From NCBI GenBank assembly GCA_002793855.1, contig PFET01000001.1, positions 19,520 through 83,519 of the forward strand: a stretch of 64,000 nucleotides of DNA, in the 5' to 3' direction. The notes beneath the pieces were generated by a model. The model had not been told where the DNA came from. It worked only from the letters and a program-made list of their open reading frames with translations, and searched no databases. This document shows, one piece after another, positions 4,773 to 59,848 of this stretch (position 1 is its first letter; each line of letters opens with the position of its first letter). Both the position numbers and the translations under genes were made by a program. This stretch comes from Candidatus Uhrbacteria bacterium CG10_big_fil_rev_8_21_14_0_10_48_11 (lineage in GTDB: Bacteria; Patescibacteriota; Patescibacteriia; GWA2-46-9).

Positions 4773-4885
4773 AGCTTATATATTATACGATACTCTAGGG
4801 TAAACTACAACGAGCATCGTTGACGTATTTATCACTAATCGGTACACTTGCAGCCACTGGTTTACGTTCTATCGTTTGTAATTCG

Positions 4886-4979
4886 GGAAGGGTGGCTGAG
4901 TGGTCTAAGGCGACGGTTTGCTAAACCGTTGTATGGTGTTTACGCCGTACCGAGGGTTCGAATCCCTCCCCTTCCGCCA
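4886..4979 (+). tRNA. tRNA-Ser (GCT)
   Basis: Acceptor ggaaggg/cccttcc, anticodon loop ttGCTaa, long variable arm, T arm gaggg-ttcgaat-ccctc, and the CCA is encoded. Confidence 0.9.
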
Positions 4980-5054: not shown

Positions 5055-5088
5055 GGTGGGGTGGCCGAGTGGTCGATGGCGACAGTCT
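5055..5088 (+). repeat. duplicated 5' half of tRNA-Ser(TGA) (34 nt, 33/34 identical to 5121-5154)
   Basis: Direct repeat ggtggggtggccgagtggtcgatggcgacagtct lying 33 nt upstream of the intact tRNA. Confidence 0.7.
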
Positions 5089-5120
5089 AGTCCGCCTTCA
5101 CTTACAAAATGCACCAGAGC

Positions 5121-5207
5121 GGAGGGGTGGCCGAGTGGTCGATGGCGACAGTCTTGAAAACTGTTAGACCCGAAAAGGTCTCGTGGGTTCGAATCCCACC
5201 CCCTCCG
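5121..5207 (+). tRNA. tRNA-Ser (TGA)
   Basis: Acceptor ggagggg/cccctcc, anticodon stem acagt/actgt with loop ctTGAaa, long variable arm agacccgaaaaggtctc, T arm gtggg-ttcgaat-cccac, discriminator G. Confidence 0.9.
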
Positions 5208-5260
5208 CCCTGGTGCGTTCTCATTACGGACGATCCGCAGAAGTTTGACCAAAGAAAAAC

Positions 5261-5343
5261 GGAGGCGGAAAAACGGTTAGCCCCAAAAGGTCTCATGGGT
5301 GCGGGCTTGTGGTGAGTCCTACGAACTAATCCCACCCTCTCCG
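5261..5343 (+). pseudogene. degenerate tRNA-Ser-like remnant
   Basis: Retains ggagg..gttag, a ccccaaaaggtctcatgggt variable-arm-like segment and gaactaatcccaccctctccg (compare ttcgaatcccaccccctccg). The D and anticodon arms are lost and an insertion is present. Confidence 0.4.
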
Positions 5344-5422
5344 AAGAAAAAATTGCTGCCCTATAACCAGCATTTTTTCTTATGGTAACATTGATAAACT
5401 ACCTTTTAATAAATATAGAGAT

Positions 5423-5767
5423 TTGAAGATATGTCCCACGTTTTTCATCATTTGGAAAAGAGAAAACTTGCAACAAAAAAAGCTAGAACCCTATCCTCGT
5501 CATAATCAAGTATATAGATTTGTTGATCGTTTTATCTATGTTGCTGGCATGCTAGGCCCTATTATGACTATTCCTCAAGTAGCAGCCATCTGGATATCAA
5601 AACAGGCAGCGGGCGTGTCAGCACTTTCTTAGGCAACCTACGGCATTATATCAATCTTTTGGTTACTATATGGCATTTTGCATAAAGAAAAACCAATCAC
5701 TATTATTTACAGCATTTAGATTGCTCTCTATCTCATCATTGTGGTAGGTGTGCTGCGTTATGGTTAA
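5423..5767 (+). pseudogene. SemiSWEET/PQ-loop family small membrane transporter gene interrupted by two in-frame TAG codons
   Basis: One reading frame gives ..FIYVAGMLGPIMTIPQVAAIWISKQAAGVSALS*ATYGIISIFWLLYGILHKEKPITIIYSI*IALYLIIVVGVLRYG* with a PQ motif and a WxxYG motif. The TAG codons are at 5630-5632 and 5717-5719, there is no frameshift, and the final stop is TAA at 5765-5767. The stretch is visibly AT-rich compared with its neighbours. Confidence 0.5.
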
Positions 5768-5782
5768 ATAGTTACCTCCTTA

Positions 5783-6499
5783 TTACCGCTGCTGCGAATC
5801 ACTTCTTGCAATCACAACCGCCCAAACGCTTAAAGCTCCAGCTTCAAATAGAACTCGTCCTGCTTCTTTTGGCGTAGAACCTGTAGTAACAATGTCATCA
5901 ACCAAAACACAATGTCTTCCTTGCACTTCTGCCGGGCGGCTACAGACAAACGCATTTCGTACATTATGAGCACGCTCTGCGGTGCGTAATCCGTATTGAG
6001 GAGCGGTATGCCGATCGCGCCGGAGTGCCGAACAGAGCGAAACACTATATTGCGCGCCAAGCTTCTTTGTCAGAGCTTCAGCTTGATTAAATCACCGCTT
6101 ACGAAAGCGACACCGGCTTAGCGGTATAGGAACCAGTACCGAACTTTCTTTTGCAAAAAATATTGGCAGCTCGGTGTTAGCGAAGCATTTCCCAAGGTAT
6201 TGACCCAGCTCCTCGGCTGGTCCGTACTTCCATGTGCGAATGAGATTACGCCATAACCATTCATCGTAAGTTGCTCTAACGAACAGGCCATTAAGCCGAC
6301 GCGGCTTTTGGCATTGATCGCAGGTTTTGCCGTAGGCACTTGGCAATAGGCAGTAGGCACAGCGTTGGATAGGTTCTACTGGTCGCTTTGAAGAGCATAA
6401 TGGGCATACCCATTCACCCTCGATACCGCAACCGATACAGAACACAGGAAAGAGCACTCTCGTTAATTCTTCAACCGCGCGTGACAGCAACGTACGCAC
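5783..6499 (-). pseudogene. comFC: competence protein ComFC (phosphoribosyltransferase family) with a single in-frame TGA
   Basis: N-terminal Zn finger (CIGCG..CPLC..CAYC..CDQC), then PIPLSRCRFRKR-[TGA at 6092-6094]-FNQAEALTKKLGAQ.., then the PRTase motif HCVLVDDIVTTGSTPKEAGRVL. The TGA falls exactly where ComF proteins have the conserved Gly of R-x-R-G-F-N-Q. The frame is otherwise continuous to TAA at 5783-5785. Confidence 0.7.
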
Positions 6500-6510
6500 G
6501 GAACGTTACG

Positions 6511-7104
6511 CTACTTGGTTTCGTCGAAAAAACCGTCCACCAACCAGTTGTCACCCTGGCGAACCAGATCAACCCTTACGGTAGCATTCTCTACTTTTGC
6601 TGCATCACTACCAACAACGATGGTACGCTGAATACTTAACCGAACCGTTGCCTTGTTATCCCCTTCTTGCACAAGATGCGCACTGAGAACACGAGTGATT
6701 TCTGACGCAAAACCGTCTTTATACGTAGTGCGTAGTTGTGGTAAATAAGTACCCGTTGCCCATGACGAAAAACTATCTGTAAGTAGAGGTGCTAGTTCTA
6801 CAATTCCGGCGAAACCTTCATCGGTAGAGAACGTCCCAAATCGTTCTGTAAACAGACGCGCTAACCGCGTTGCGCTTGTTTCTGCGGTAACCGTAACTGG
6901 CGCCACAGGCGTTACTGTCCCGTCCGCTGCGTCACCCTGCTGGTTACTGTTGGTGTTTCCGATATTGGCAGCTGGTTTACTGCCACCAGATTGACCGCCA
7001 TACCACCACAACCCACCACCAACTGCTGCTATCAGCACAACTACAAGAACGGTGATAGCGATAATTTTTTTTCTATCCATAAAAATCGCGTTAATTAACA
7101 TCAT
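6511..7104 (-). CDS. bitopic membrane protein, possibly VirB8-like T4SS component
   Basis: N-terminal TM (IIAITVLVVVLIAAVGGGLWWY), a Gly/Ser/Asn-rich linker, and a ~120 aa C-terminal domain. It overlaps the VirB4 gene by 14 nt, which suggests co-translation. The VirB8 assignment rests on topology and context only. Confidence 0.4.
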   Translation of the reverse strand: MMLINAIFMDRKKIIAITVLVVVLIAAVGGGLWWYGGQSGGSKPAANIGNTNSNQQGDAADGTVTPVAPVTVTAETSATRLARLFTERFGTFSTDEGFAGIVELAPLLTDSFSSWATGTYLPQLRTTYKDGFASEITRVLSAHLVQEGDNKATVRLSIQRTIVVGSDAAKVENATVRVDLVRQGDNWLVDGFFDETK

Positions 7105-8965
7105 CTAAACCTTGCACCGCCGCCGTATCATCGCCACCGACTTGCTCCTTTGCCGCTTCCATTTCAAGTAGCTGACGCGGATCGGTGGTTATTAGTTGAT
7201 CTTCGGTGTAGGAAGCCACCACCTTAATGGCAGCGTGCTTTGGACCGGCAAAGAAAATACCCTCGCCAACGCTTCCCTCGAGTAGCAGGTACTTCTCACC
7301 TTCGGTCAAAAGGAAAGTTTTTTGGATAAGGTCGATAGCGGCCGGTGATTGCTTTAAGAGAAGTTGCATTGCCGAGTTGTTGACGACCGCTTGACCGTAA
7401 GGTGAGCCAAGAAAGTCGTTAACGTCCTGAGAAATAGTAGTAAGTCCGAGATAGTACTTCCGTGCACGTTTAGCAAGCGCAAAAATGAACTTAGCGCTGT
7501 CTTCGTGCTGCATCATAATCCATGCCTCCTCAATAATGAGGATGCGCTTCTTGCGTTCGCTTCTGACCAAATTCCAAATATTATTGATGATGGTGTACAT
7601 GGCAATCGGCCGGAGTTCATCCTCAAGATCGCGAATTGAAAACACGACCAACTGGCTGTCAGTAATGACGTTGGTTGGGCTATTGAGAAGTCCGGCAAAC
7701 GTACCGCGGGTGTATTTCTGTAGTCGTGCAACCAAATCTTTTGTCCCCTGCATACCCTCAAGCACATCCTCGAGATCAGCTAACACCGGCGGCTCGACGT
7801 TTATTAAGTCAGCGTCTGCGGTGATATCTTTCTTGGCGTACGTTTCAAGTAATGCCCGGTCAAGCAGAGAGTCTTCTTCGCTAGTAAGCCGCCCAAGCAT
7901 AATGCGCAGTAACCCTTTTAAGGTAATAACGGCGCTTCTAATAATGTCCCCCGTTTGCACATCTTCACCGATGCCTTTGGGTAAATCAAAAGGATTAACT
8001 TTGCTTTCGCTCGAAAGCGATATGTTGAGGTACGTACCGCCAACGGCTTCTGAGAGGTGCTCGTATTCTTTCTCGGGGTCAATGACGATAATGTCCACGC
8101 CCATCATAAGGGACCGCAAGACCTCGAGCTTTACGGTATAGCTCTTACCAGCACCAGAAGTGGCGAACACCACCGTGTTGGCATTCTGTAGTGAAAACCG
8201 ATCGAAGAGAATCAAGCTATTATTGTGCCGGTTGATGCCGTACAAAATACCATTGTCGCTCGTCAGCTCTGAGGATACAAAAGGAAAAGCGGACGAGATG
8301 GGTGACGAATTCATGTTAAACGTAATCTGTAGCTCATCTACGCCGAGCGGCACGGTAGAAATGAAACCCTGCTCCGCCTGGTAGAGTACCTTGCGCGCAT
8401 AGACCAGTTTGGTTCCCAGCAGCTGAATGATGTCATCCGTTGCGGTATTGAGATGCTCTAGCGAATCTGCGTAGATGGTAATGTAAAGCCCGAACTGGAA
8501 AAACTTTTCCACTCCCTGTGTCAAATCGTCACGTAATCGCTCAATGTCATGAAGCGCCGTTTCTTTAATCGGATCGCGTGGTGCTCCCTTCTCGTGGTCG
8601 GCAACAATCTCTGCCTCAAGCGCACCAACCTTATTTTTTAGCTGCTTTAAAATAACCGCCGCGTCTACTGGGTAGACGTAGAGCGAGAGGTCAATGGTGC
8701 CGCTAATGTTAATAAGGGGCGCAAACCAACCGACAGAAATATAACGAGGATAATCGGTAACAAAGATAGTTCTAACAAATTGGTCGTTCAGTTTTATATA
8801 CGAGGCCTCAATTTCAAGAGCCGACGGCGCGACAAGATCACGCAACTTAATGGTACCGGCTCGATACGCTTCAGCGGCGGCAAGTACTTCCTTCCCCTCT
8901 TTAGGGCTTAATGCTTTTTCCTCGACCGTTTTGGGTTGCTTCTTTTTTTTGTTAAAGCCAATCAT
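7091..8965 (-). CDS. VirB4/TrbE-family T4SS ATPase, C-terminal (ATPase) portion
   Basis: Walker A VFATSGAGKSYTVK, IIVIDPEKEYEHL, and Walker B-like hydrophobic stretches followed by EEAW. The overall layout matches Gram-positive/CPR VirB4 homologues such as the PrgJ/TcpF type. Confidence 0.8.
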   Translation of the reverse strand: MIGFNKKKKQPKTVEEKALSPKEGKEVLAAAEAYRAGTIKLRDLVAPSALEIEASYIKLNDQFVRTIFVTDYPRYISVGWFAPLINISGTIDLSLYVYPVDAAVILKQLKNKVGALEAEIVADHEKGAPRDPIKETALHDIERLRDDLTQGVEKFFQFGLYITIYADSLEHLNTATDDIIQLLGTKLVYARKVLYQAEQGFISTVPLGVDELQITFNMNSSPISSAFPFVSSELTSDNGILYGINRHNNSLILFDRFSLQNANTVVFATSGAGKSYTVKLEVLRSLMMGVDIIVIDPEKEYEHLSEAVGGTYLNISLSSESKVNPFDLPKGIGEDVQTGDIIRSAVITLKGLLRIMLGRLTSEEDSLLDRALLETYAKKDITADADLINVEPPVLADLEDVLEGMQGTKDLVARLQKYTRGTFAGLLNSPTNVITDSQLVVFSIRDLEDELRPIAMYTIINNIWNLVRSERKKRILIIEEAWIMMQHEDSAKFIFALAKRARKYYLGLTTISQDVNDFLGSPYGQAVVNNSAMQLLLKQSPAAIDLIQKTFLLTEGEKYLLLEGSVGEGIFFAGPKHAAIKVVASYTEDQLITTDPRQLLEMEAAKEQVGGDDTAAVQGLDDVN

Positions 8966-9660
8966 TGCATTGATGAAGTTATGCCGGCACTGTCAATTTG
9001 CAGCAGTTTAAGGTCGACTAGCGGCGCCAGTTTTGCCAGCTCGGGGTTATAGGTTGCGTAGTACAGTTCAACCAAAGACTGCGTGTCCAAAAGTGCGATT
9101 TCCAGACTGAGCGAATTAAGACCGCTCGCGACATGATCGGCGCGCTGCATCAGTTCATGACGATTTCGACGAAAACGATCTTGGCTCAGGTGAATGAGCG
9201 CGTCAGGATGAAGCACTTCGCGCATGCGTTGGAAAAAAGTTTTCTTCCTATCCGCGCCCGGGTTGTAAGGTACAACGACATAGAATCGTTTGTTCATAAT
9301 TTCACCCAGCTCAACCAGTTCACGAATGAACTGCCGGTACTGCGTCGTTTGAATACGCAATAGCTCATTGGTCTGCTGCTTCTCAATATCTGCCAAGTGA
9401 TCAAGATAGCCGGCTATATTCAGTCGACGAGACTGCACCACAATCTGTAGAGGAAAATCAATAGAGTTCAAAAAACTCATGTAGCCCTGAATAATTGCTT
9501 GCTGCTCGTCATCAGATTTTAGGGCAAAGTTGATAGACGAAACCAGCATGACGGCTCGCAGAGTCCCATCTTTCAACACAGCAACATCCTCTCGGATTTC
9601 TGAAATTTCCAAGAGGTGCTGGGTACTTATGGTTGTTTTGTTCGCTTTTCTTTTTGCCAC
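8962..9660 (-). CDS. VirB4 N-terminal domain encoded as a separate ORF (split VirB4)
   Basis: IREDVAVLKDGTLRAVMLVSSINFALKSDDEQQ matches the conserved N-terminal VirB4 segment. Its TGA overlaps the ATG of the downstream ATPase ORF (ATGA), and an A8 homopolymer lies immediately after the junction. Confidence 0.6.
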   Translation of the reverse strand: MAKRKANKTTISTQHLLEISEIREDVAVLKDGTLRAVMLVSSINFALKSDDEQQAIIQGYMSFLNSIDFPLQIVVQSRRLNIAGYLDHLADIEKQQTNELLRIQTTQYRQFIRELVELGEIMNKRFYVVVPYNPGADRKKTFFQRMREVLHPDALIHLSQDRFRRNRHELMQRADHVASGLNSLSLEIALLDTQSLVELYYATYNPELAKLAPLVDLKLLQIDSAGITSSMQ

Positions 9661-9669
9661 AAAAGCCCG

Positions 9670-10116
9670 TTAGCTGTTCCCTTTTTCTGCGTTGTCACCA
9701 TGGTAAATACCACCAGTATCAACAACGAGAGAAAGCTCAGCGAGTCGCGAGATAGTTGGTGGAGGGCGGCGAGTGGTAACTTTTGAAACACTTGCATCAT
9801 TAATGATCTCGGGAGCCATTTGATCTTGCTTGCCGTATTCTTTTCTCCACACACGTAATCGCGGACGCTGTAAGGTTTGTATTAAATTTAACAGAAAATA
9901 GTGAAAGGGTCGACCATTGATGCGTACAAAAGCGAGTACGATGCCCGATACTACAAATAAGATGGTCAAAATAATGAATAATGAAGTGTCGGCTAGTCGA
10001 TAGCTTAAAAAGACCAAAAAACCAACAACAAGCATAATCAAAAATTGCCGCACTGCAATTGGGCCCAAAATGTGGGACTCTTCGTCAATAAACTGCGGGA
10101 CGACAAATTGCTGCAT
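9670..10116 (-). CDS. small two-TM membrane protein, VirB3-like by size, topology and context
   Basis: 148 aa with two hydrophobic helices (LIMLVVGFLVFLSY, LFIILTILFVVSGIVLAFV), positioned directly upstream of the VirB4 ORFs. Confidence 0.4.
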   Translation of the reverse strand: MQQFVVPQFIDEESHILGPIAVRQFLIMLVVGFLVFLSYRLADTSLFIILTILFVVSGIVLAFVRINGRPFHYFLLNLIQTLQRPRLRVWRKEYGKQDQMAPEIINDASVSKVTTRRPPPTISRLAELSLVVDTGGIYHGDNAEKGNS

Positions 10117-10117
10117 A

Positions 10118-10828
10118 CTATGCCCTTATGGTGCGATTAAAATTTATTAAGGCGAGAAACTCTTCCTTGGTAAATGCCTTTGTCTCTTGTAGCACCGCCT
10201 CAATAGATTTCCCGGTATTCAGAGCGGCGACAATAGTCGTGAGGTGTGCTTGGTACAGTGGGCTCTGCCGCCAAGCACGCAGCGCCGAGGCTGACTGATC
10301 GAAAGATTCTTCACTTAACACCTGAAATTTTTGAGTAAGGCGATCAATCGCTTTTTCAGTAGTTGCGCCAAGATGATGAAATTCGTCTATCGATAAAAAA
10401 CGTAGCTCATCAAGCGGGCCGGATACCACTGGGCGCTGAACATCCACCATATGCCGAACCGCAGGCAAGGTAAACTTACTAGAAACATCCATTATGTTCT
10501 CTGTTATATTTTTTTTGAGCTGTGCGCTTGTTTCCACTTCTGTAGGTACTGACTTTGGAGCGACGGCCTGAGTAAAAGCAAGTGCTCGATCTTTACCGTG
10601 CTCTTGCTCAACTAAACCAGAAGCTGTCTTGTGGTCCTCCAACCGCTGATGAGGGCGATCCTTGCTAACTTGCTCTACTGCTTTTTCTGCTGGTTTATTA
10701 TTTGCCGGTACGTTCTTTTTTGTTTGTACGTATGGCTGCCAAGTATTATCTCGCCAGACTTGCCATTCACCATCTTTTCGACGAACAAGAGTGTCGTTTT
10801 GTAGGCTCATAGCGTTGTATCCATCCAT
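10118..10828 (-). CDS. hypothetical protein (T4SS cluster)
   Basis: Intact 236 aa ORF, hydrophilic, ending in TAG. No motif recognised. Confidence 0.45.
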   Translation of the reverse strand: MDGYNAMSLQNDTLVRRKDGEWQVWRDNTWQPYVQTKKNVPANNKPAEKAVEQVSKDRPHQRLEDHKTASGLVEQEHGKDRALAFTQAVAPKSVPTEVETSAQLKKNITENIMDVSSKFTLPAVRHMVDVQRPVVSGPLDELRFLSIDEFHHLGATTEKAIDRLTQKFQVLSEESFDQSASALRAWRQSPLYQAHLTTIVAALNTGKSIEAVLQETKAFTKEEFLALINFNRTIRA

Positions 10829-12264
10829 TGGTATGACTGCGTAGCTTCATCGAAATAGGCAAGGTAGGGAGTAGCGCTATCTTTTTTTCTAGCAAGTGCA
10901 GTTAATTCTGCTGCGAGGTGGGCGGCTTCGGAAATTTGCATATGCATATGATCCTCAAGCAGCATACGCAGAAAATTACGAAGGTGTTCAGGATAATTTA
11001 AGCCCTCCTGTAATTGTCTCAACATGGTCGCTTTTTCAAGTTTACGATAGCGTGCCGCCAAAAGATTTTTAAACCTTTGATCAGCAAAGATAAAGCTTTC
11101 TAGCTTACCCTGCTCTGCTAATGCATACAATACAGCAGCAACAGGGGCTTGCCGTGACACGTTAAAAGCTGTAAGCAAAGTATCATACAGCTGTTTTGTA
11201 TTGATTTGATTGTTCCGTATTCTTCTTATCTCTTTCCGTACCTCCGCACTTTCAAATAGTGAAGATGTCGCTTTCTCTTCCGCGGCAAGTGCACTCCTCT
11301 CTTTTTGGTGCAACGTACTCTGTTTAAGAACCGTTGAAGTACGTGCGTGTACGTGTTCCGTATCAATCTTATTCTCTTCTTGACCTGCAACCTCACTGCC
11401 TAAGGGAGCTTTACGTAAATCGACCCATTCGTCATTCTCGTCATTTGGCCCACTAGGCGGTTGCTCATCTTCTGGCGTAATTAGTCCAATTTTTTTAAAT
11501 TGGTTAATAAGCCGCTCGACTCGAGGATCAACTTGCTGCACCTGTCCATCCTTAACGGTTACCTCTTTGCCGTCTATGTTTGTGCTAAGTGGTTCCTCCA
11601 GGCCATCCACACTAAACGTGGAACGCTTAAGTCGTTCATATAGATGCAAAAGAAAATGTAATTTTTCTTTTTCTTGCGCAGATATTTTTTTTGTATTGAT
11701 AGAAGAAGATAAATACTCAATTTGCTTAATTGATTCAGCTGGCTGGGCATCCACGTGGCGAACATAGTCACGCAACCAATTCGCAACTGTGGGTAAAACC
11801 TCTTTCTCTTGGATTATCAGTTTATTGCTAGTAATAGTTTCTTGATTCTCCTCAAGAGCATATCTAAGTTTTGCTTTAAACGCGTCTCGTTCGTCATGGG
11901 GATAACGAATAATTAAAATCGCGCGCAGCTGCTCCCACACGTCCAAGTTGGCTGACATGTCCAGAGCAAAAGAAAAATAGGTAGCAAAGAGCCGAATAAT
12001 TTCTTCTTCGGATAACGAACTTAAGGCAAGCCAACTAGCACGTGTAACCAACTCTTTATAGCCATCAATCAATGCGAGAGGCAACAAGTTATTTATCCCT
12101 TTTTCTTCTAGCGCTGGTTTTATATTTTTTATTAACCACTGCGCTTCCTCTACTGCATTAAATTTAAGCACGTCACTAACAAAATGACCCTGCATCTTCC
12201 TGAGTAAGCTTGGATCGTTTAACCAACGGTAGTCAGTATTTACTTGTTTTTTTTCATTAGTCAT
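10807..12264 (-). CDS. hypothetical protein (T4SS cluster)
   Basis: Intact 485 aa ORF with no NTP-binding motif. It overlaps the downstream ORF by 22 nt. Confidence 0.45.
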   Translation of the reverse strand: MTNEKKQVNTDYRWLNDPSLLRKMQGHFVSDVLKFNAVEEAQWLIKNIKPALEEKGINNLLPLALIDGYKELVTRASWLALSSLSEEEIIRLFATYFSFALDMSANLDVWEQLRAILIIRYPHDERDAFKAKLRYALEENQETITSNKLIIQEKEVLPTVANWLRDYVRHVDAQPAESIKQIEYLSSSINTKKISAQEKEKLHFLLHLYERLKRSTFSVDGLEEPLSTNIDGKEVTVKDGQVQQVDPRVERLINQFKKIGLITPEDEQPPSGPNDENDEWVDLRKAPLGSEVAGQEENKIDTEHVHARTSTVLKQSTLHQKERSALAAEEKATSSLFESAEVRKEIRRIRNNQINTKQLYDTLLTAFNVSRQAPVAAVLYALAEQGKLESFIFADQRFKNLLAARYRKLEKATMLRQLQEGLNYPEHLRNFLRMLLEDHMHMQISEAAHLAAELTALARKKDSATPYLAYFDEATQSYQWMDTTL

Positions 12265-12267
12265 ACC

Positions 12268-15200
12268 CTACATTAGAGCGATTGCCTGTGCCTGAAGTCC
12301 TGAGTAGCTTGTTCCAACACCGCGTTTCCTGTAAAACCTCCCCATACGATCAATTGCTTCAGCTAAAGTTTCTCCCGTATCTAGGCTGGCCGTTAACATT
12401 CCTCTCCGTTGCATGTCAAATAGTGCCTCTATATCTTCCGACAGCTTCATAATCAAGCTTGGGTTGACTTCTGCCCTACCCAGACGATAAGCAAAATCAT
12501 CCTGAAACCCAGCAAGAGTTAGTTTACCTGATAAATCAAGGTGGAAGTTACCCCGCGCATCCTCATAACCGTAACCAAGACGGTTATGGTTCTGAATAAA
12601 CTTCCTAGAATCTTGTTTTAGGTTTTCAGTTGCAGCAGCTGCAGCCTGCTCTTCTCTTGTTCGATAGTAGTATCGTCCATTCTTCATACCATACATACGT
12701 GACACGTTGTTATGGTTGTGCGCTTCATTAATGTAGGACATCTCGCTCATCAGTTGCATTGAACCCTGTTTGCCAAAAATTTTCTCTAGCCGATCCTTGC
12801 GGAATTTTTCAGCACCCTCAGGACCACTCGGAAGACCGTTGTCTTTATAAATTTCGTTATCATTATAATCTTCCGCCGCTTTTTTCATGAAGGTACTCAC
12901 TTGAAGCATGTTGCCCTCTTGAATGGCACGCTCCAGAAGGTCGCCCAACTCTTCCCACTCCATAGATTCTCTTGGTAGCTTAGATAGTTCTTGCTGCTCA
13001 AGTGCCCGATATACACGGTCGGCATAAAATGTCTGGGGAACGGGTTCGCTTCTTGCAAGATTCTTATCAGAAAATCTTTTTGCTTGCGCTTTTAGCTGTT
13101 TCCTAATCTTTTCAATATCTTCCTCACTATTATCTTGTTGCGCGTAACCTTTTAGTTCGGCTATTCTAAATCTAGCCTCTTTAATTGCATTTTTATTAAG
13201 GTCTCTGTTTGCATCAATTTCTTTCTGCTCCGCCGGCAACTCCTTAGTAGCAATTATTTTCTCTTTCTTTTTTTGTTCTTCCAAATTATTTAAAAGTGAG
13301 CGCTTTAGGCTTTTCAGTTTGCTGGTTTCGTCGGGATCTCCTGCCGCTTCCTCGATGCGCTTATCGACAGCAACGAGCTTGCGTAACAAATCTTCAATGC
13401 GGGCATCGACTTGTTTCTTTTGATCCTCTGTATAACCACCACGCTGTAAATAGGTGAGTTCTTCTTCTTTTTTGGTCTGTTCTTTTTTGTACTCCTCCTT
13501 TGCTAAAGCTTTCAATTTTTCTTTCTCTTCTAGAGTTTCTTTTCCTGTTTCCCCGTAACCCATTGCTTTCATCTGCTCCGCAACCAAATCTTGAAACACT
13601 GGACTATTGCTAACCAAACTATGCCCTTTTTCTTTAGCGATAGACTCAATAAAGCTTTCAGTCTGCTTCTTGTAATCTTCACGCTCGGGACCACTTATGT
13701 TAGCAACTTTTGCTGGTATTAAAATGCCTCTTTCTGCCATTTGGTCCATTACACTTACCGTCCTCCCAGTCTTATCTCCCTTTGCATCACGCTCCTCTTC
13801 GTAAAGAACAGACTTTAACTCGTCTTGCGTCAAATCGTGCCTTTCGGCAACTTCAGCCAGAGAATGCGTCAATTCATTTTCGATAGTCTTACGACGTGTA
13901 CCGAGTTTGGCGCGGCGCTCCTTGGTAGCTTCTTTAACTTCTTTCTCTTCCATGCCACCCGCACGCATACGTGCTTCAAGAGCGCCAAGTCTATTCGCTC
14001 GCTTCTCAAGTGCCTGCGTTGCCTTAGTAATGGCTTGTTCTTCTTTTGCTATTGCTTGCTGAATCTCGTCCTCATCTTTACCTTCCTTCTTCATCTCTAC
14101 CTTCTTCGCCTGCAAACGTTCAACCCGTTCATTGAGTGTGCTGCGATCTTCGGTGAGGCTCGCTCGTTGATCCTGTGTCAAACTCTGAATGATTTCCTCT
14201 TCGGTGCCACCGCCCAGCAAATCAGCTTCAATGGCTGCAATATCTTTTTCTTCCTCGGTAGCATTTTTCATGTCCTCCTGATATGTCTCCATCGCCGGTA
14301 AAACCTCTGGAAGCGCTGCTTGGACGCCCTTAATTTTTCCCTCAGTAAGTTTTTCTGTAGCCGCTCTAGCCGCAAACACGCGGGCTTCTGCTATAAGTTC
14401 TGGTTCACTCCTTATGGCCTCTGCCTCTTTTACTAGCTCCATCGAACGAATTTTGTCTTCCTCCCCTTCTTTGTATGCTTCTTCACTGTATCGTCCTGGA
14501 TCCCGCAGAGTTCTTCCAAAGCGTTGCCTACCAACTTTACCTTTCATGAAAATTTGCAGGAAATCCTCAGTTGCTCCTAATGCCAGTAGCGCCATACCCA
14601 GTCTTCCGCTTTTCGCTTCCATATACTCTTTATAGTTTGCTGTTGCTTTCCGTTGCCCGATAACCTCGTTCTCTCCCCGTCTTCTTGCAAAATACCCTTT
14701 GGTACCACGAATAAGCCGGCGCGGATCAAGACCCCAACCTTTATTTGCGTATAACGTTGACTCGGCAAAAGAGGCTAGGTCTCCAAGTGCATTGAATGGA
14801 GCAAACGCTGTTTTGACACCGGCGCTCGATAGTTTGCCATAGACGGCACCTGCAATTTTGCCAACTGCGCCGCCGGTTTCCATGGCAAAATACAGCGACA
14901 CCATCAGCATAGCGATTGCCATAATAAAACCAGTTAGGTTTGACTGTGCACCCGCCTCTGTTATACCGATATCGGGGAGTAACGGAGACGTTGGCACTCC
15001 ATCAGCAGTCTCGTCAACACTTACATTCTGAACAAAGCCCTTATCCGTAGAAAGCAAGCTTGGCAGCGTCGCAAGTGACAACCATAGAAAAAAGGCCATC
15101 AACGGGCCAACAATGACATACTTTGAAAACATATCCCACCACTGACTGGCATACTTTTGGCCGATAGGTAAAACAGAAAGTACATAAACCATTGGTGAAA

Positions 15201-16014
15201 AAATAATAAGTAGCCACAAAAAAACGATTCGTACGGCTAGGATGGCCGCAAAGGCGCCTACTACAACTATCGCAACAATGAGATAGACAAGCGCTAGCAA
15301 GTAACCACCCGCTATCGTCCATCCGGCGATCTGCACACCTTCAGTGATACCTGCATCGGAATTAATGCTTAGAATGGATTGTAATTTTAGTGCGCTGGCA
15401 AAATTGCCTGCACCTGCTAACTGATATGCGTTTGCAAACGTCAACATCACAATCTGGGCAAAATCAATGAACAACCCAGCGATAGTTTTGCTGAAATTCA
15501 CAAGGAGGGCCATCAGTAAAACTTTTGGCAGCAGACGTTTTAACTGATACTGTTCGAGGCCAAGAATCGTACCAAAAGAAATCAACAACAAAATCAAAAC
15601 GAAAAACATGTTACCGATATCCCGTACAACGCTCCAGCCCATGCCGACCGCCGGTGATTCGATAAAACCATTATAGGTACCAAGGGTTGTTATGGTCAGT
15701 CCTACCAAAAAGCTTAAAATTTTTCCAAGCAGCGATATAATAATGGCTGCAAGGGCAGAAATAATGAACGGCAACCAGCAAGTCGGATCAAGCCAGCCGC
15801 AGCTTGCTTTCACTTTTTGAGTGCCTGGATCAATAGTGGTAGGTGTTACGGTCGTAATGGTAGCGCTGTCATTCCCCGCAAAAACGGTAGGTGCAAAAAA
15901 TTGAGGCGGCACCGCTTGCTGCAATGTTGGAACTGGTATGCTGGTGACAACAGCAAGCGTAACGAAACCAATAAGTATTTTTTTTATAGAGATGCTATGG
16001 AGCAACATACCCAC
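12268..16014 (-). CDS. VirB6/TrbL-like polytopic membrane protein with a long C-terminal E/K-rich coiled-coil extension
   Basis: The N-terminal ~560 aa contain at least eight hydrophobic helices. They are followed by ~700 aa of charged heptad-like sequence (KEEEL, KKEGKDEDE and similar). It sits between the VirB4/VirB3-like genes and the giant surface protein. Confidence 0.6.
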   Translation of the reverse strand: MGMLLHSISIKKILIGFVTLAVVTSIPVPTLQQAVPPQFFAPTVFAGNDSATITTVTPTTIDPGTQKVKASCGWLDPTCWLPFIISALAAIIISLLGKILSFLVGLTITTLGTYNGFIESPAVGMGWSVVRDIGNMFFVLILLLISFGTILGLEQYQLKRLLPKVLLMALLVNFSKTIAGLFIDFAQIVMLTFANAYQLAGAGNFASALKLQSILSINSDAGITEGVQIAGWTIAGGYLLALVYLIVAIVVVGAFAAILAVRIVFLWLLIIFSPMVYVLSVLPIGQKYASQWWDMFSKYVIVGPLMAFFLWLSLATLPSLLSTDKGFVQNVSVDETADGVPTSPLLPDIGITEAGAQSNLTGFIMAIAMLMVSLYFAMETGGAVGKIAGAVYGKLSSAGVKTAFAPFNALGDLASFAESTLYANKGWGLDPRRLIRGTKGYFARRRGENEVIGQRKATANYKEYMEAKSGRLGMALLALGATEDFLQIFMKGKVGRQRFGRTLRDPGRYSEEAYKEGEEDKIRSMELVKEAEAIRSEPELIAEARVFAARAATEKLTEGKIKGVQAALPEVLPAMETYQEDMKNATEEEKDIAAIEADLLGGGTEEEIIQSLTQDQRASLTEDRSTLNERVERLQAKKVEMKKEGKDEDEIQQAIAKEEQAITKATQALEKRANRLGALEARMRAGGMEEKEVKEATKERRAKLGTRRKTIENELTHSLAEVAERHDLTQDELKSVLYEEERDAKGDKTGRTVSVMDQMAERGILIPAKVANISGPEREDYKKQTESFIESIAKEKGHSLVSNSPVFQDLVAEQMKAMGYGETGKETLEEKEKLKALAKEEYKKEQTKKEEELTYLQRGGYTEDQKKQVDARIEDLLRKLVAVDKRIEEAAGDPDETSKLKSLKRSLLNNLEEQKKKEKIIATKELPAEQKEIDANRDLNKNAIKEARFRIAELKGYAQQDNSEEDIEKIRKQLKAQAKRFSDKNLARSEPVPQTFYADRVYRALEQQELSKLPRESMEWEELGDLLERAIQEGNMLQVSTFMKKAAEDYNDNEIYKDNGLPSGPEGAEKFRKDRLEKIFGKQGSMQLMSEMSYINEAHNHNNVSRMYGMKNGRYYYRTREEQAAAAATENLKQDSRKFIQNHNRLGYGYEDARGNFHLDLSGKLTLAGFQDDFAYRLGRAEVNPSLIMKLSEDIEALFDMQRRGMLTASLDTGETLAEAIDRMGRFYRKRGVGTSYSGLQAQAIALM

Positions 16015-16398
16015 TCAGCTTTTAAGGAGACTTAAGGAGGTATTGATAAAGTCCGATCCTACAGCTGTCGCGACAATAATTACCAATAAAAGAAGCAAAA
16101 ATGGCCAACCAATGGTACTCATAAATGCGGTGACACCTGCTACAATTTCAAGTAATAAAGAAACAACAATCCGTTTCCTGAATTTTTTTTTAATCTGCTC
16201 TTCTACTCCAGAGGTCGCTTTCTTCATACCCTTTCTTGCTCCCTGACCTTTGTCTATGTCTTGTTTGTGATTAGACTCTTGCATTCTGGCGCTTTGCTTG
16301 CTCATACGAAAACGCGCCGCTGACGCTTCTTGTTTGCGGACTTCCTCTTGCTTGCGCGAGAATAAAAGGTTGTCAACGTTTTGTGAAAGCTGTGCCAT
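16015..16398 (-). CDS. small basic protein with a C-terminal ~35 aa hydrophobic hairpin (possible pilin/VirB2-like subunit)
   Basis: 127 aa with a Lys/Gln-rich N-terminus and a C-terminal IVVSLLLEIVAGVTAFMSTIGWPFLLLLLVIIVATAV segment. Confidence 0.35.
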   Translation of the reverse strand: MAQLSQNVDNLLFSRKQEEVRKQEASAARFRMSKQSARMQESNHKQDIDKGQGARKGMKKATSGVEEQIKKKFRKRIVVSLLLEIVAGVTAFMSTIGWPFLLLLLVIIVATAVGSDFINTSLSLLKS

Positions 16399-16404
16399 AG
16401 GTGT

Positions 16405-19400
16405 CTACTGACTAATCGTTATAGCGTCACCGGAAGACTGCCAAGCGGCTGCGTGACTCGCGCTGCAGTCTCCCCTGCCGTCAGTATTTAACTCGTTGTA
16501 GCCAGTTTGCCCAAAGAGAGGATTGCTGTTACCGGTTGACGCGTAAGCGCCATTGCACCATCCCCAGTTATCCAAAATTTGTACGCGTGGTGTCACTTGA
16601 TAGATACCATTCACTATTGTCGTGGTCTTGGCACAGCTTCCCTCTTTGACGCAGCGAGCCACATCATCGTACGAATAACTATGCACGAGCGAGATGGGGT
16701 TTTGGTCCGAAGGGTGGCTCGCAAACTTTAGACCGGTTTGCACCGTTCGTGACCCGTCTCCCCAATCAACAATGTAGCGCACAATTGGTTCCTGTTCAGG
16801 ATTGGCAATGGCCGTAAAACTGAGGGTTACTGACCCCACTTTTGTAATGGTATTGGCCGCTCCTGAAAGTTCTACAACTGGGATAGCCGGTACAACCCCG
16901 CAAATCTCAGATCCAACACGAACATTCAGCGTTGGACCTGAACCACATTGTTCCGTTGGTACTATTAATTCTTTACTGCCGGTTTCGACATACCGATACC
17001 CGTCGGGTGTTGACTGCCACTCCCACACACCATAGCTCTGAACAAAAAGCTGTTGCAATACCTTAACTGCCTTAGTTAAACCATCAGCATAGGTCGACTC
17101 TTGAATCTCATTCAGCATGGCACCACTACTCGAACACTGTGAGCTAAATAATGGCTTATAGGTGCCTATTAATAAGCTGTTAATAGGGTGACAAGAATAT
17201 GGACCACCTGCACGCGCCTGACTTGTGCTGGTTGAAGAAGCTGATGGCTCTGCAAAAAGTGGTTGCACGCCGACAAATGTTGTTGAGTCCCAAGCAAGCG
17301 GATCGTCAGCAGGAAATGGCGGAACAACACTACCGAATGGGGGCGAATCTGTTGTAACCTTATATTCATAATTATCCTCTGCAGACGATTCATAACTAGT
17401 GCCTCTGCCCACCTTTATAGATGCTTGACTACCAGGGGTAACCCGAGATGCATAGGCACGGTTCTGCCCTGCTGAACCGACTGTTTGCATGACTGCGTTA
17501 CAGCTAAACGAAGGTCGCGCCCACAAACCGAGCGGCGTAATGTAGTCATCAGAAGACAATGACTCGATTATCAGGTAGCGGAATGGTCCCGGAATCCGAT
17601 TACCATTACTGTCGACTGCCCAGGCAACGTCAGCCCACATCTCCGCCCAACCATTGTTTGCTTGATCAGGCGAAGGACGATTGCCGAGGGATGGCGGACA
17701 AGCGGCCGATTCACACCATTCATTAATATAGTAGAGGCTACTAAGATCCTTGCTGACGTATATTTTGTATTTGTCATCACCGTCACCACCCTTGTTATTT
17801 TCCATCCAAACGCGAATTTCGCACCCGGCATGAATAAGAGGGGTAGCAGAATCTACCGCGTGGTAGTTTGCGTCGCACTTGCCGGGTTTATCAACAAGAC
17901 CACCTACCGCATATCCTTCAGTTGTTGAGTCCGCATTGCGATAAAGATCAAACACTACTTTTTCGGTTTTGTCTATTTTTCCGCCGTTATATTCAGTTTG
18001 TTGGCCATGTTTGTCTATCTTAAAGTGACTGAAAGTATCAGTTGGAACCGCCGGGCTCTTCTTACCACCCGTGTAATCAGGAACAGTCGAAGCACCAACA
18101 GAAGAATGCAATAAGGTTGCCCAGCCATCAACAACATCTAGACACTGATACAAGGGTATCGGACCTTGGTAACCAACATGGTCCTGTTCCGTATCTTCTC
18201 CAATGATGTTGTCGACCGGCCACCACTGCAAACAGTTGCTACTGTTCTGTGGATCGGGTGTTAAACAATACCCCAATTTCCCGCGATGACGGAGGCCGTT
18301 GTCATCATTGTATTGACAAGAGAGTGACGTCTCTTCTGGGTACAGGCGGCAGGACTGTGATGCATAGCTGTAGTCGAGCGTCTCGATGCCATTTTCGTAA
18401 TCTACGTTCGGAAAATCTGGATCTACATGAAGGATGTCACAAGTATTTCCAGCACCACAATCGTCATCGACTTGGCATAACTTTGTTACATTGTTAGAAC
18501 AATAACGGTATTCATTGCGACGATACTCAAGTGCGGGCTGGAGCTTAATATCGTCTACGTACCAATTACCGGAGCTATTTTCCGTACTGCCTCCTTTGGC
18601 AAACCAGCCGAATTGAAGGCGGATATAACGAGTATCCTCATCAGTAGTGAATTTATCCACTTTTGTGGTCCAGTCAAAACCTGCACCTGTATCGAGAAGA
18701 GCTAAGAATTTACAGGTACCGGCGGTATTACAGGGTACGAGATCACCATTTGTTTTGTACTGAAAGACTCTGATGCCAGCGCTCTTACCCGAGAAATGCA
18801 CCGTGTTGACATCAGCAGACAAAATATAATCTGCTTCGCCAGCGACATTAATTGTTCCGCTATAATTAGCGAGATTGGGTGCTAAACTGTCATCAATAAA
18901 CTGCGGAACATCAGGTACCTTATGGTTAGCATTCACTTCTAAAAACGCCCTGCCTTCTCGTGGGTACAGTATGCCAACAGACTGAGCGCTTACCGGATTA
19001 TTGATGACTCTAAAATTCTGTCCATTACCCCAGCCAACCCAACTCACCGCATTACCTTGTGTGCTTGGTATTTCAAAGTTTGCATTCACGAGTAGCGCTA
19101 ACTGGCCAACTTGCTCCATATAACCCGGACTAATGTAACCCTGAAGTAGCCTTGGTGTGCATTTCCCTGAACCACAATCGGCATCAGTAGTGCAACTCGT
19201 TGACGAATTGTTAGAACAGACATTACCCCAATTAAAACCAACGCTCGAATAACCAGAGCGGTCTTTTAATTGATCGACGGTAGAAGCGGCGTACGTAAGG
19301 TCTTTGTCTGGCTCATCAAGAGTCGTACGTATACATTGACCTTTATCATCGAGCTGTTCGCATCCCTCGACAGCAAGACAGATATTTCGCCTTACACTAT

Positions 19401-22400
19401 TGCGTGTTACCGTACGGGCTGTCTTACAAGCGAGCCAACTACCACACTCTCGGCTCGGTTGTACCTTGACCAGCAAATTAGAATCGCGCTGAAACTGACA
19501 ATCGCTATCAGCGGTACATGAAAGGCCAACCGTACCTCGACAAATGCCAGAAGTTCCCGTGGCTTGATCGGCACCAACGCAAGAATATTCTGTTCTAGTC
19601 GTACCATTAGGAGTCTTTGTATCCCCTAACGGGCTCATATCAGCGTCGTAGGTATTGACGATAGGCGACTTGTAACTCGTTTGGAAACTAGCAAGGACGC
19701 AGTTGGCATTATTGACCGTACCGGCACAACTTGCAGTATCAAGCTGATCCACAAGTTCGTAATGAATACTGGCCTCGCGAAGCGACACATTTCTTGTCTT
19801 TACTGCGCCAGTTGCAAATTCACCGCTCACGTTAGATGGCAATAAATCATGAGCTTGTCCGACGCGGACGCTACAATTTTCTACGTCATCAGTATTTTTT
19901 ACGTAGAAGCTTACACTAAACCGATCGAACGAATCTTTCTTTGTAGGTTCAATAAAAGTATACGGCGACCCTTGAATGGATAGTGACGAACCAGGACACT
20001 GGATACCGAGATAAGCATTTGCGGCAAGCGAACCGCTGACAGCTTCCGCTTCTGCTGAAAGTACATAAAGCGTACGCTTGCGCAAAGTTACGTTTGACTG
20101 TTCAAACCCGCCACTGCTAATAGTTAAGGTATTCAGGTTTTGGTTGTAATGATAGGTTGTTGACGGTGAAGCAATCGACGTCCATGATCTTGGTGTTGTG
20201 CCATCAGAAGCAATAAACGAACCATTAATCAGTAGATCCCGAGTACCGTCTGAGCGAGGGTCAACTATTTCTTTGCAACTATTCTGCTGCACGGGGCAAG
20301 TACCAACGTAGCCAGCTATTGGCTCCTGGGCGGTCGAACCAGCAATTTGTACACGAGGTACGGTTGTATTGGTAATAGTACGATTACAGTCAGGACTTGT
20401 CGCGGATGAATCTTTCTTATACCAACCGGAAACTGGACGGTCGGTGTGGTATTCACAGGTTTGATCTCCCGGATCTCTAAAGTAGTAAACACTTCCGGCG
20501 GCATCCTTAAAGGCAGAACACTGCAACTGATCAAGCTTGCAGAGAATAACCCCATAATCATCGGGATTATTTTTAAGGTAAACACTTGACCACGGTGTTG
20601 CGCTATCGCCAAGAGCATCACGAAGAATACGCTGAGCATCACTCGCCGCTAATGTACCTGCGTCAAACTTTGCAACCAGCGAATTATAACCGGCAGCCAA
20701 AAGCTTGCTTCGCAAATCAGGCAAACACGATCCCCCTGCTGCGCACTTCAATGTCTCTAGTGCAAGTGCAGTGTTGGCTTTGATTGACCGGTCAACTTTA
20801 CCCAACGCCTGACAACCCTGCGCTTCTGTCTTGCAAGTTTTTGTCGGATCGTTAACAAGGTAGTCAACCGAATCGGCCGGTACGGTAATAAGGCTATTGT
20901 CTTCAGCGTCATTAAATGACCTCGCAAAAGGCGCGTCACCTCCAACCGTAGTGTTCTGCGTGTCGATGACCGCTTCACAGCCAACAACCTTAGCGTGACA
21001 GGCGGCGCCAAACTGCCAAACGTCTTTGCTTGAGCCGTCACTTACCTGATACTGCTGACAACCAAGGAACGGCTGACGAGCGGCATCGTTAGAGTAACAG
21101 GAAAGCGGTGTACGCCAACTATTCTTGACGAGATAATGAGTGTCGGTAGTTGTTTTGAGCTCTATGTTGTCAATAAATACCTTGCCGGTACCGGATGGCG
21201 TTATTGCTAATGTCGTCACCGCATCGCTAGCACTGACAGCAATACTCACTGGATCACTTTTGATTTGTCGCCATTCACTAGTTAACAACGCATCCGTTAC
21301 CAAGGTACCATTGGTTACCCCGTTACCACTGATGGCGGCGCTGATCGCCGCTGTTGCCGTACCGGTTTGTGTACGTGCCCAGAAAGTAACGACATAAGTT
21401 GCCGGGGCAATTGTACCGGAGGTACCACTGGTGCTGCTACCAGCATTAACGGTAACCGCTTTCTCGGCAACCGCCTCGGTAATCTCGTACGAGTGTCCGC
21501 CAACAACACTAGAAACAGCGCTCAACTGTCCGCCAGACCACTCTGCAGTACCTTTCTCGAACGTATCATTCAATACTGTTCGGTAGCTAGCCGACGTTCC
21601 TCCGCGATACTCACGACAACCAGCAACCGCAGCGCTACACTGTCTACCACCATTTGGTACGGCCTGATAAATACATACTTGAATGCTGGTATTCCACCAA
21701 CCGTTCGAATTAGCACAGTCTTGTTGGTTAGAATCTGTCTTTCGCAACGGATGGCAAGAATCGGTAACGCTCACCGTTTTTGAAAGCAACCGGTAAGAGA
21801 TTTGACCTGTTTCGTTATAGAACTGTCGACAATCGGGGTTTGACTGATAAGTATTCTCGTTACAGGTTCGCCACGCTGTATCGCCTGCGTTACTGGTATC
21901 GCTGCATGAAGCGCTTATCCCATCGCTACTCCAATTGATGTGCGTGCAGGGAGCCGCCAAGTCGTTACCGGTGCTGCCTGCAGTCGTGCTGAATCCGGAA
22001 GGATTCGTCGCCTCTGTTTTCTTCAGTTGGAATACGCGCAACTGGAAGCCAGTTTCGTCAGACCCTTCCCATGTGTAGAACGTACCACTGTCAGTTCCTC
22101 CTGGCTTTTGGCAAAACTGTACCTGCTGATAGTACTCACGCGCCTCACCGCCGGATGTTTCCTTGTCGAGATTTGTAAACTCATCACAACCCACCGCAGC
22201 CGCAGGACAACTTTGACCTGTTGCAGGAATGAGATCGACAAACTTTGGTTTCTCGAAAAAGGTTGCCGTCTGAGTATAAGTATCAAAACCTACACACTCT
22301 GTCGGACAACTCTGTCCGCTTACAGCCGTTACTGTTGCTGTCCCGTTTGCAGGGGTGTAGCTCCGGCAACCAACCTCCGCCGGTAAACAATATCGCGCAT

Positions 22401-25140: not shown

Positions 25141-25146
25141 AATTGC

Positions 25147-25887
25147 CTATTGCTGGGCGTTAAGCTGATCGAGCGTCTGCTGATAGAGCTTTAACAAGTC
25201 AGCGTCTGAGAGCTTACTAAGCGTTGCTTCGTCGACACCGTTTTGTCGCAAGAGATCTCGAATTTGACTTGGTGAAAGATTTTGTAACTCTTTTGGTGTC
25301 TGGGTAGAGCCTGAAGCTGCCGTCCCACTTTGTGCAGCCAAGGCCTGTTGGTAGCTAGCGACAATTTGCTCATCGGTTAAACCTGCAATTTCTTGTTCGG
25401 ACGCACCTGCCTGACGTAGCGCTGTCCGAAGTTCGTCTGGAGTTGGCGTTGCGGTGGTGCCGGGAATTGATGGTAGCGACGGTGCTGTTGTAGTTTGATT
25501 GGTTCCAGCGGTGTCTGTCGAACCGATAAGCGAGCAATTTTGACCAGTTGGGCAATTAGGATCCGTCCCATTGGCAATTTCTTGCCCGTCACTTATCCCG
25601 TCAGAGTCAGAATCGGCCAAATAGGGGCTGGTGTGATAAATGTTTATTTCGTCACTGTCATAGAGACCGTCTCCGTCAGTGTCTACTTTGGCAACAGCGG
25701 AATTGTCGTTAGAAGCAAAAAGATCAGTCGCTGTAGTTTTGACCGCGTAAGGTCCATAAACTGTCCGGCGGAGACTAATGCCTCCTAAAACAATCGCACT
25801 TGCGCCTATAATAAAAACAGTCGCCAAAAGAAGGCCTCTGGTACGCCCTGAAATTTGACCGGTAGTAGTACTCTTAAAATCAAACAT
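25147..25887 (-). CDS. secreted protein with thrombospondin type-3-like Ca-binding repeats
   Basis: N-terminal TM, then DTDGDGLYDSDE and DSDSDGISDGQEIANGTDPNCP (DxDxDG repeats). A C-terminal tandem of helical motifs (LTDEQIVASYQQAL / LSDADLLKLYQQTL) follows. Confidence 0.6.
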   Translation of the reverse strand: MFDFKSTTTGQISGRTRGLLLATVFIIGASAIVLGGISLRRTVYGPYAVKTTATDLFASNDNSAVAKVDTDGDGLYDSDEINIYHTSPYLADSDSDGISDGQEIANGTDPNCPTGQNCSLIGSTDTAGTNQTTTAPSLPSIPGTTATPTPDELRTALRQAGASEQEIAGLTDEQIVASYQQALAAQSGTAASGSTQTPKELQNLSPSQIRDLLRQNGVDEATLSKLSDADLLKLYQQTLDQLNAQQ

Positions 25888-37391: not shown

Positions 37392-37732
37392 ATAACGTTG
37401 GTTACGACTTTGTCGTAACCTATAAGAGGTTTCTAGTCCCGCGAGCACGCGGGGCACCAGGTACGTTTGTCCCGCGAGTGCTCCGTGCACCATTCTTCGT
37501 TCTCCGAGCTACGAATGGCACGCCATCCATTCGTTTCAGCTTCGGATGGCGCGGCCAGTTAAGAGCAAAGACCAAAAAGTCCCTCAAGGCTGCGGTAGGC
37601 AGATTTTCTTATTGCACGACACGGTAAAACTTTTCCTTTTAGATTTTCCGTTTCTTTATTCATTTTTATTAATCTTATTTTTTGGTGACACGTTTCCCGT
37701 TAGGATTTGTGCGCCACTACAATGACATACGT

Positions 37733-39547: not shown

Positions 39548-39566
39548 AGACCGCGTCGACCTTTCT

Positions 39567-39602
39567 AAAATACCGCCGCGTTTTACGCGGCGGTATTTTT
39601 TT
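39567..39602. terminator. bidirectional intrinsic terminator (rnj and the convergent pseudogene)
   Basis: The hairpin ccgccgcg-tttta-cgcggcgg is flanked by an A-run on the left and a T-run on the right. Confidence 0.7.
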
Positions 39603-43164: not shown

Positions 43165-43241
43165 GGGCGCGTAGCTCAGCTGGTTAGAGCACTTCACTGA
43201 TAATGAAGAGGTCGATGGTTCGAGTCCATCCGCGCCCACCA
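43165..43241 (+). tRNA. tRNA-Ile (GAT)
   Basis: gggcgcgtagctcagctggttagagcacttcactGATaatgaagaggtcgatggttcgagtccatccgcgcccacca. It stands alone rather than sitting in a 16S-23S spacer. Confidence 0.9.
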
Positions 43242-44546: not shown

Positions 44547-46163
<1,617 letters not shown>

Positions 46164-59802: not shown

Positions 59803-59848
59803 AATAATGATATATTAATTTACTAACTTTTATAAGTATACACTTTTA

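Follow-up and report, generated by a model that had tools for sequence, protein, structure and literature searches.

A probable SemiSWEET pseudogene, with TAG codons at two tryptophan sites, in a standard-code Uhrbacteria genome

In a 64,000-nt stretch of a contig of Candidatus Uhrbacteria bacterium CG10_big_fil_rev_8_21_14_0_10_48_11 (the whole of which was analyzed and is here called the window), one reading frame from position 5423 is open to a TAA at 5765 to 5767, save for TAG codons at 5630 to 5632 and 5717 to 5719. Does this frame belong to a working gene, in which TAG must be read as an amino acid, or to a gene that has been lost? A first-pass annotation of the sequence had offered both answers, namely, a very recent pseudogene with two nonsense codons or a gene taken over from a donor in which TAG is a sense codon. 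We consider the locus to be a recently inactivated SemiSWEET pseudogene with two TGG-to-TAG changes and one frameshift, residing in a CPR genome that uses the standard code (probability of roughly 0.93).

Family identity and ancestral reading frame

The main-frame translation consists of ...GPIMTIPQVAAIWISKQAAGVSALS, ATYGIISIFWLLYGILHKEKPITIIYSI, and IALYLIIVVGVLRYG, which end at the first TAG, the second TAG, and the TAA, respectively (features of the locus and of its surroundings are collected in Table 1). PQ-loop and WxxYG motifs had been read from the sequence as running in one frame across the TAGs, and both motifs, as well as the homology to known proteins, do lie in the 5423 frame: the first TAG is flanked, in the same frame, by a PQ motif (IPQ) and by an FWLLYG..HKEKP motif. 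When 5.8 billion protein clusters were searched, 52 homologs of ~111 to 114 aa that belong to the SemiSWEET/PQ-loop proteins were recovered (best E = 1.8e-31, at 63% identity), and both this search and the resulting alignment (A1) carry the homology unbroken across the two TAGs, without a gap, a degree of similarity that we judge to be far beyond chance.

Several sources name the homologs “PQ loop repeat” or “SemiSWEET family transporter,” and many of them carry precomputed matches to PF03083 and/or PF04193. Taken alone, the window sequence scores below the curated cutoffs of Pfam (18.8 versus 23.7 bits for MtN3_slv and 14.1 versus 22 bits for PQ-loop) and of NCBIfam (58.7 versus 100 bits for SemiSWEET_3, its top NCBIfam family match, and 36.9 versus 80 bits for SemiSWEET_2), scores that mark a divergent subfamily. 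The family assignment is based on a profile of the homologs (alignment A1, in which the window sequence is included) and not on the lone sequence. This profile matches the solved SemiSWEET 4QND (E = 8e-16) over residues 11 to 96 of its 101-residue chain, covering the whole bundle, and it also matches the solved structures 9KON, 4RNG, 4QNC, 5UHS, 5UHQ, 9KAX, and 4X5M. Hydropathy gives three hydrophobic segments at approximately residues 33 to 55, 62 to 85, and 87 to 111 of the restored 111-aa product, and the IPQ motif, which is invariant across the family, occupies residues 47 to 49. The ancestral product is thus predicted to be a three-helix membrane transporter of the SemiSWEET family, with one triple-helix bundle and a PQ motif; the label “SemiSWEET-like,” given from the letters alone, was right.

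In size and architecture, this product resembles the bacterial SemiSWEETs of Vibrio sp. (4QND), Leptospira biflexa (4QNC), Thermodesulfovibrio (4RNG), and E. coli (4X5M), which are ~80 to 110 aa long and form one triple-helix bundle, with the PQ motif in TM1 and a W..YG motif in TM2. Unlike these solved proteins, the window copy has been disrupted by a frameshift and a pair of nonsense codons, and its subfamily possesses a basic N-terminal extension of ~30 residues (HHxHxRKR...EPYPHP) and an invariant HKEKPI loop, both of which are absent from the solved proteins. We found no characterized member of this subfamily in the literature and nothing specific there on SemiSWEETs together with Patescibacteria or DPANN.

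Table 1. Positions in the window of the SemiSWEET pseudogene, its lesions, and other features discussed in the text
Feature	Position	Strand	Basis or remarks
tRNA-Ser(GCU), intact	4885-4979		
tRNA-Ser(UGA) 5′-half copy (pseudo-tRNA fragment)	5055-5088	+	
tRNA-Ser(UGA), intact	5120-5210	+	Upstream of the pseudogene
tRNA-Ser(UGA) 3′-half, degenerate copy	5262-5343	+	T-loop insertion of ~22 nt; follows the intact tRNA and precedes the pseudogene
SemiSWEET-family pseudogene, ancestral ATG to TAA (restored product, 111 aa)	5431-5767	+	Homologs, A1, HMM, hydropathy, 4QND
N-terminal segment MSHVFHHLEKRKLATKK, frame of ATG 5431	5431-5481	+	tblastn, HMM, A1
Lesion 1: A7 homopolymer, inferred +1 insertion (A6 to A7)	5475-5481	+	Spacing, HMM junction score
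Main body of the pseudogene (LEPYP...VLRYG), frame of the first-pass annotation	5483-5764	+	Homologs, A1, tblastn
Lesion 2: in-frame TAG at the start of TM2, ancestral TGG (Trp)	5630-5632	+	A1, codon census, 4QND
Lesion 3: in-frame TAG in TM3, ancestral TGG (Trp) most likely	5717-5719	+	A1, codon census
Ancestral TAA stop	5765-5767	+	C-terminus ...YG agrees with homolog ends
comF/ComFC-type pseudogene, adjacent and convergent	5783-6499	-	In-frame TGA at 6092-6094; NCBIfam comF, E = 1e-26
LivJ-like pseudogene (Pfam Peripla_BP_6)	~39468-40720	-	Halves in different frames; in-frame TAG at 40065-40067

The conserved N-terminus of the family (MSHVFHHLEKRK...) begins at ATG 5431, in a frame that differs from that of the main body. 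The N-terminal extension is conserved and basic across the family (...HHxHxRKRIxxKHEPYPHP...); its counterpart in the window, HHLEKRKLATKK, is read from ATG 5431 (MSHVF...), and the same MSHVF start occurs in two Patescibacteria homologs (P0047 and P0049). The tblastn HSPs of homolog N-termini fall in the ATG 5431 frame, as do the matches to positions 3 to 25 of the family HMM. When one A is removed from the A7 tract, the translation becomes ...ATKKLEPYP..., in which the 11 residues from HH to EPYP give exactly the consensus spacing. Against an HMM of 80 homologs, the frameshift-corrected protein scores 155.2 bits, versus 141.7 bits for a single frame read from TTG 5423 (a difference of 13.5 bits), and a junction at the A7 is better than an earlier one, which scores 151.2 bits. 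Judging from these matches, TTG 5423 is not the ancestral start.

Because the N-terminus is in the other frame and is joined to the main body at the A7, reading both TAGs as amino acids would still not allow the gene to be translated in a single frame. The first-pass annotation, which had presented it as readable in a single frame with no indel, was accurate for the frame that crosses both TAGs to reach the TAA but missed the N-terminus and the +1 indel. Since the frameshift is drawn from a short N-terminal match (the 13.5 bits) and the extension is missing in some members of the family, we leave a small chance that the gene started inside the main frame, which would leave two lesions rather than three.

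The ancestral states of the two TAG codons can be read from intact relatives at 80 genomic loci (L007 to L086) of DPANN archaea and CPR bacteria. The codon at the first site is TGG in 72 of the 80 (the others have TTT, TTC, TAC, or TAT) and that at the second is TGG in 61, and in-frame stops, TAG or other, occur in none of these 80 genes. In A1, at least 90% of the sequences have Trp in the column of the first TAG, a position that aligns with a Trp of 4QND; in the column of the second, Trp is the majority residue. The HMM of 80 homologs ranks the residues that can be placed at both TAGs in the order W (155.2 bits), Y (149.3), L (147.3), X (146.1), and Q (146.0), so the Q, Y, or L proposed from the sequence alone gives way to Trp. 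With Trp (TGG) at these sites in the homologs, each TAG is one G>A transition away from TGG, the sole Trp codon. That homologs align here without a gap, and with Trp rather than with unrelated residues, shows what the ancestral frame was; it does not show that TAG is read as sense.

Inactivation weighed against error, phase variation, and recoding

An ancestral gene of ~111 aa, whose product had a basic N-terminal tail rich in His and Lys ahead of a single triple-helix bundle with a PQ motif, was most likely inactivated by three independent lesions: a +1 insertion that lengthened A6 to A7 and put the start codon and N-terminus out of frame with the remainder, and two G>A transitions that turned Trp TGG codons into TAG. 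The host reads TAG as a stop, and at most a short, nonfunctional peptide could be made (~24 aa from ATG 5431, or 54 to 69 aa from internal TTG codons). All eight invariant family columns and 14 of the 15 nearly invariant ones are kept (the exception is the first TAG), and the score of the restored product lies within the range of 124 to 191 bits spanned by intact members. As the conserved residues are otherwise intact and the restored score is in the family range, inactivation is likely to have been recent on the scale of family divergence. Stops have hit two of the four Trp codons in this 111-codon gene, with no other conserved residue changed, a pattern somewhat more stop-rich than simple neutral decay, although not significantly so (rough P of ~0.2). 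The idea of a recent nonsense pseudogene, one of the two originally put forward, is strengthened by there being three lesions instead of two and by the placement of the TAGs at conserved Trp sites.

Sequencing or assembly errors in a gene that is really intact could produce the same picture: homopolymer length errors are common, and the consensus of a low-coverage metagenome can be wrong. However, over the A7, both TAGs, and the TGA of the neighboring comF gene, the window is matched at 100% identity by three further contigs, which show neither mismatches nor gaps: ENA ERZ27293400 k141_883555 (L001), JGI 3300004210 Ga0066639_10000349 (L002), and JGI 3300004208 Ga0066640_10035086 (L088). These concordant assemblies include two separate JGI metagenomes, and they may stem from the same sampling site, perhaps with some reads in common; their complete identity at the lesions argues that the lesions are not assembly errors. 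Gene callers on the concordant assemblies also ended the ORF at the first TAG, the 5.8 billion protein clusters contain no intact, near-identical allele (their best match is the one of 63% identity), and three errors within 340 bp, with a fourth in the neighboring gene, would be implausible in an otherwise clean 64-kb window, all of which makes error very improbable. A pattern for either allele (TNG) of the first TAG matched nothing in a collection of metagenome contigs from which the source contig is itself absent. A frameshift within a homopolymer is also the classic substrate of slipped-strand events, and the gene might on this account be a contingency (phase-variable) or programmed-recoding gene, in which slippage at the A7 switches the frame and read-through yields low-level expression. 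Against this, the two downstream nonsense codons make restoration of the frame useless, A7 is short for such a tract and has the same length in all assemblies, and no stimulatory structure, terminator-like feature, or promoter-like feature stands out (in a promoter and terminator scan of positions 5200 to 5900, nothing rose above shuffled expectation), such that we hold regulated expression of this kind to be extremely unlikely.

No more probable than phase variation is a functional gene in which TAG is decoded, as Trp according to the homologs, by a suppressor tRNA of the host, a phage, or a partner, or one that came from a TAG-recoded donor. As in stop-recoded genomes, in-frame stops occur where homologs keep a conserved sense residue: both TAGs sit exactly at such positions, and the remaining gene is undamaged. 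Unlike in stop-recoded genomes, TAG terminates 15 of the 37 confident genes in the window (41%, with TAA ending 16 and TGA six), making it a joint most frequent terminator of the host. That TAG is a genuine stop elsewhere in the window had been noted from the sequence and is borne out by these counts, as well as by three TAG gene ends at which the ATG of the next gene follows only 6 to 9 nt on; long ORFs in the window are terminated by all three stop codons. Also unlike in stop-recoded genomes, no tRNA with anticodon CUA was seen, either among the nine tRNAs of the 64-kb window or in L001 (the scan covered the window and a few kilobases of flanks), and the in-frame stops fall at three different residues, the others in the window being at Tyr (TAG) and Gly (TGA). 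No homolog of any lineage carries TAG at either site, which also speaks against a donor that reads TAG as sense, and suppression could not rescue the frameshift, by which the start codon is still parted from the gene body. Stop-recoded genomes include those of phages with TAG-to-Gln or TGA-to-Trp changes. All known bacterial stop reassignments involve UGA, including the UGA-to-Gly change of Gracilibacteria/Absconditabacteria, and TAG-to-Trp is not among them (PMC8629427); the homolog from a Gracilibacteria MAG (L048) has no in-frame stops under the standard code. A Trp-inserting amber suppressor, supplied by the Uhrbacterium, a phage, or a host partner and allowing conditional read-through of both TAGs, is barely credible; if it existed, it would count as the first case of TAG being naturally decoded as Trp in a bacterium, and the transporter would be regulated, not dead.

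The recently inactivated SemiSWEET gene is an ordinary pseudogene. In the Codetta screen, apparent inferences of UAG or UGA as Trp were put down to pseudogenes by the authors, in which decay of TGG to TAG aligns stops with Trp columns (PMC8629427); the window case, which concerns one gene of a CPR genome, differs from these in no matter of substance. In-frame TAGs at conserved Trp sites call for caution: TGG-to-TAG decay is expected to leave just this trace, which should not be taken for recoding. A call of recoding needs matching terminator usage, a suppressor tRNA, and several genes with stops at one residue. In the MAG, the SemiSWEET locus should be annotated as a pseudogene.

Other broken genes in the window

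Exact protein matches, such as that of RecG to PJE76276.1, tie the window to the Uhrbacteria host named above. This streamlined CPR genome holds at least three pseudogenes within these 64 kb. The comF/ComFC-type gene, which adjoins the SemiSWEET pseudogene and converges on it, matches the NCBIfam comF model in one stretch across its in-frame TGA, and this TGA stands where all nine of nine homologs carry the Gly of RGFNQ/RGYNQ. The codon is unchanged in the three other assemblies, and a relative (L089) with the same VirB4–194-aa–ComF synteny has an intact ComF of 244 aa. Reading the TGA as Gly under Code 25 was considered and rejected: TGA ends six confident genes of the window, and ORFs of 2,911 and 1,248 aa are without TGA. 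CPR organisms are thought to depend on DNA uptake machinery, of which comF is part, and a CPR bacterium that has lost an uptake component may be of biological interest.

The third pseudogene, a LivJ-like gene, has its N-terminal part (profile positions 2 to 107) and its C-terminal part (positions 136 to 336) in different frames. Its in-frame TAG aligns with a Tyr of the solved LivJ and 3IPC, there is a further stop near the signal peptide, and its 3′ end overlaps the end of an RNase J-like gene (37682 to 39547). The in-frame stops of the window thus align with Trp, Trp, Gly, and Tyr, and each of the ancestral codons is possibly one base change away from the stop. Stops that fall at Trp, Gly, and Tyr point to random decay and not to a code.

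Origin, distribution, and genomic surroundings

The SemiSWEET subfamily with the HHxHxRKR...EPYPHP tail and an invariant YG.xHKEKPI loop (L007 to L086) occurs chiefly in DPANN archaea (Woese-, Nano-, Aenigm-, Pace-, and Micrarchaeota) and also in many CPR lineages, a distribution that suggests exchange between two groups of ultra-small episymbionts. The window copy has a mean identity of 48.3% (maximum of 56.6%) to 67 archaeal copies, versus 43.8% (maximum of 45.5%) to 13 CPR copies; this edge is no more than suggestive (Mann-Whitney p = 4e-7). In a neighbor-joining tree, archaeal MAGs are the source of both the sister sequence and the ten nearest sequences. An all-archaeal sister group appears in 90 of 100 bootstraps, but 84% of the sampled sequences are archaeal, and 90/100 is barely above that base rate. 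The copies closest to that of the window are those of DPANN archaea, with which horizontal sharing of the gene is probable, and its acquisition from a DPANN-like pool is plausible. Such an acquisition would be unrelated to recoding, since DPANN-type donors use TGG at both sites.

Base composition had been called AT-rich and compatible with a foreign origin. The pseudogene (GC of 0.39) does have a GC3 of 0.34, below that of the window genes (0.44 ± 0.075), but the deviation is mild, at ~1.4 standard deviations; as a sign of foreign origin it is weak, and the codon content of membrane proteins accounts for part of it. Comparison of loci was confined to distant relatives: the nearest syntenic one, L089 (VirB4–194-aa–ComF–DUF1428), has neither a SemiSWEET gene nor a tRNA at this locus, and a RecG search of genome contigs returned no close relative and no orthologous locus from a sister species. 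The closest homolog (P0001, the protein of 63% identity) lies in an unrelated context of NiFe hydrogenase, PPDK, and HypA.

The position beside a tRNA gene, also taken from the sequence as compatible with an acquired gene, is as described, with tRNA-Ser(UGA) lying ~220 nt upstream of the pseudogene. This intact tRNA is nested between two partial copies of itself. The outer copy has its break point in the anticodon loop, its 5′ acceptor strand pairs with its own 3′ end in the predicted fold, and the inner segment is flanked by short complementary ends (AGTCCGCC and GGAGGCGG). The nested copies could be the scar of a duplication (with deletions) or of an integration. A tRNA-targeting element that carried the SemiSWEET gene was considered and set aside: there is no integrase, and the 3′-half fragment, rather than lying beyond the pseudogene, separates it from the intact tRNA, so a simple attL-element-attR model does not fit. 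It is possible that the dead SemiSWEET gene, the dead comF, and the two tRNA-Ser fragments together capture a CPR episymbiont in the course of losing its uptake functions, at a former integration hot spot that took in a DPANN-type gene. Around the intact tRNA-Ser(UGA), a 20-nt inverted repeat with 90% complementarity (5108 to 5127 and 5200 to 5219) extends the acceptor stem into the leader and trailer (GCACCAG...CTGGTGC) and may form a precursor processing stem.

Several features elsewhere in the window deserve mention. A bacterial 16S rRNA gene of 1,619 nt (44551 to 46169, minus strand; the model has 1,533 nt) has tRNA-Ile(GAU) nearby on the opposite strand (43165 to 43241); no 23S rRNA gene occurs anywhere in the 64 kb, and the rRNA genes appear to be unlinked. 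Between 48193 and 49060 (868 nt), no ORF reaches 80 aa, and there is neither a Pfam match in any of the six frames nor an Rfam match at the gathering threshold. A block of low-GC genes from 58079 to 62314 (GC of 0.30 to 0.42 and GC3 of 0.27 to 0.31, versus window means of 0.47 and 0.44) adjoins tRNA-His (57938 to 58012) and may be an acquired island. A large operon on the minus strand (7091 to 25887) resembles type IV secretion or conjugation systems, with VirB4/TraC-like (624 aa), TraC-like (232 aa), and PrgI-like (148 aa) proteins whose genes adjoin those of giant proteins of 1,248 and 2,911 aa. A run of ORFs in one frame, from 25.9 to 10.8 kb, was considered as a single giant gene expressed by read-through and was rejected, as an ATG start and a plausible N-terminus are present at each junction; five consecutive ORFs of this operon share one reading frame, each with its own ATG.
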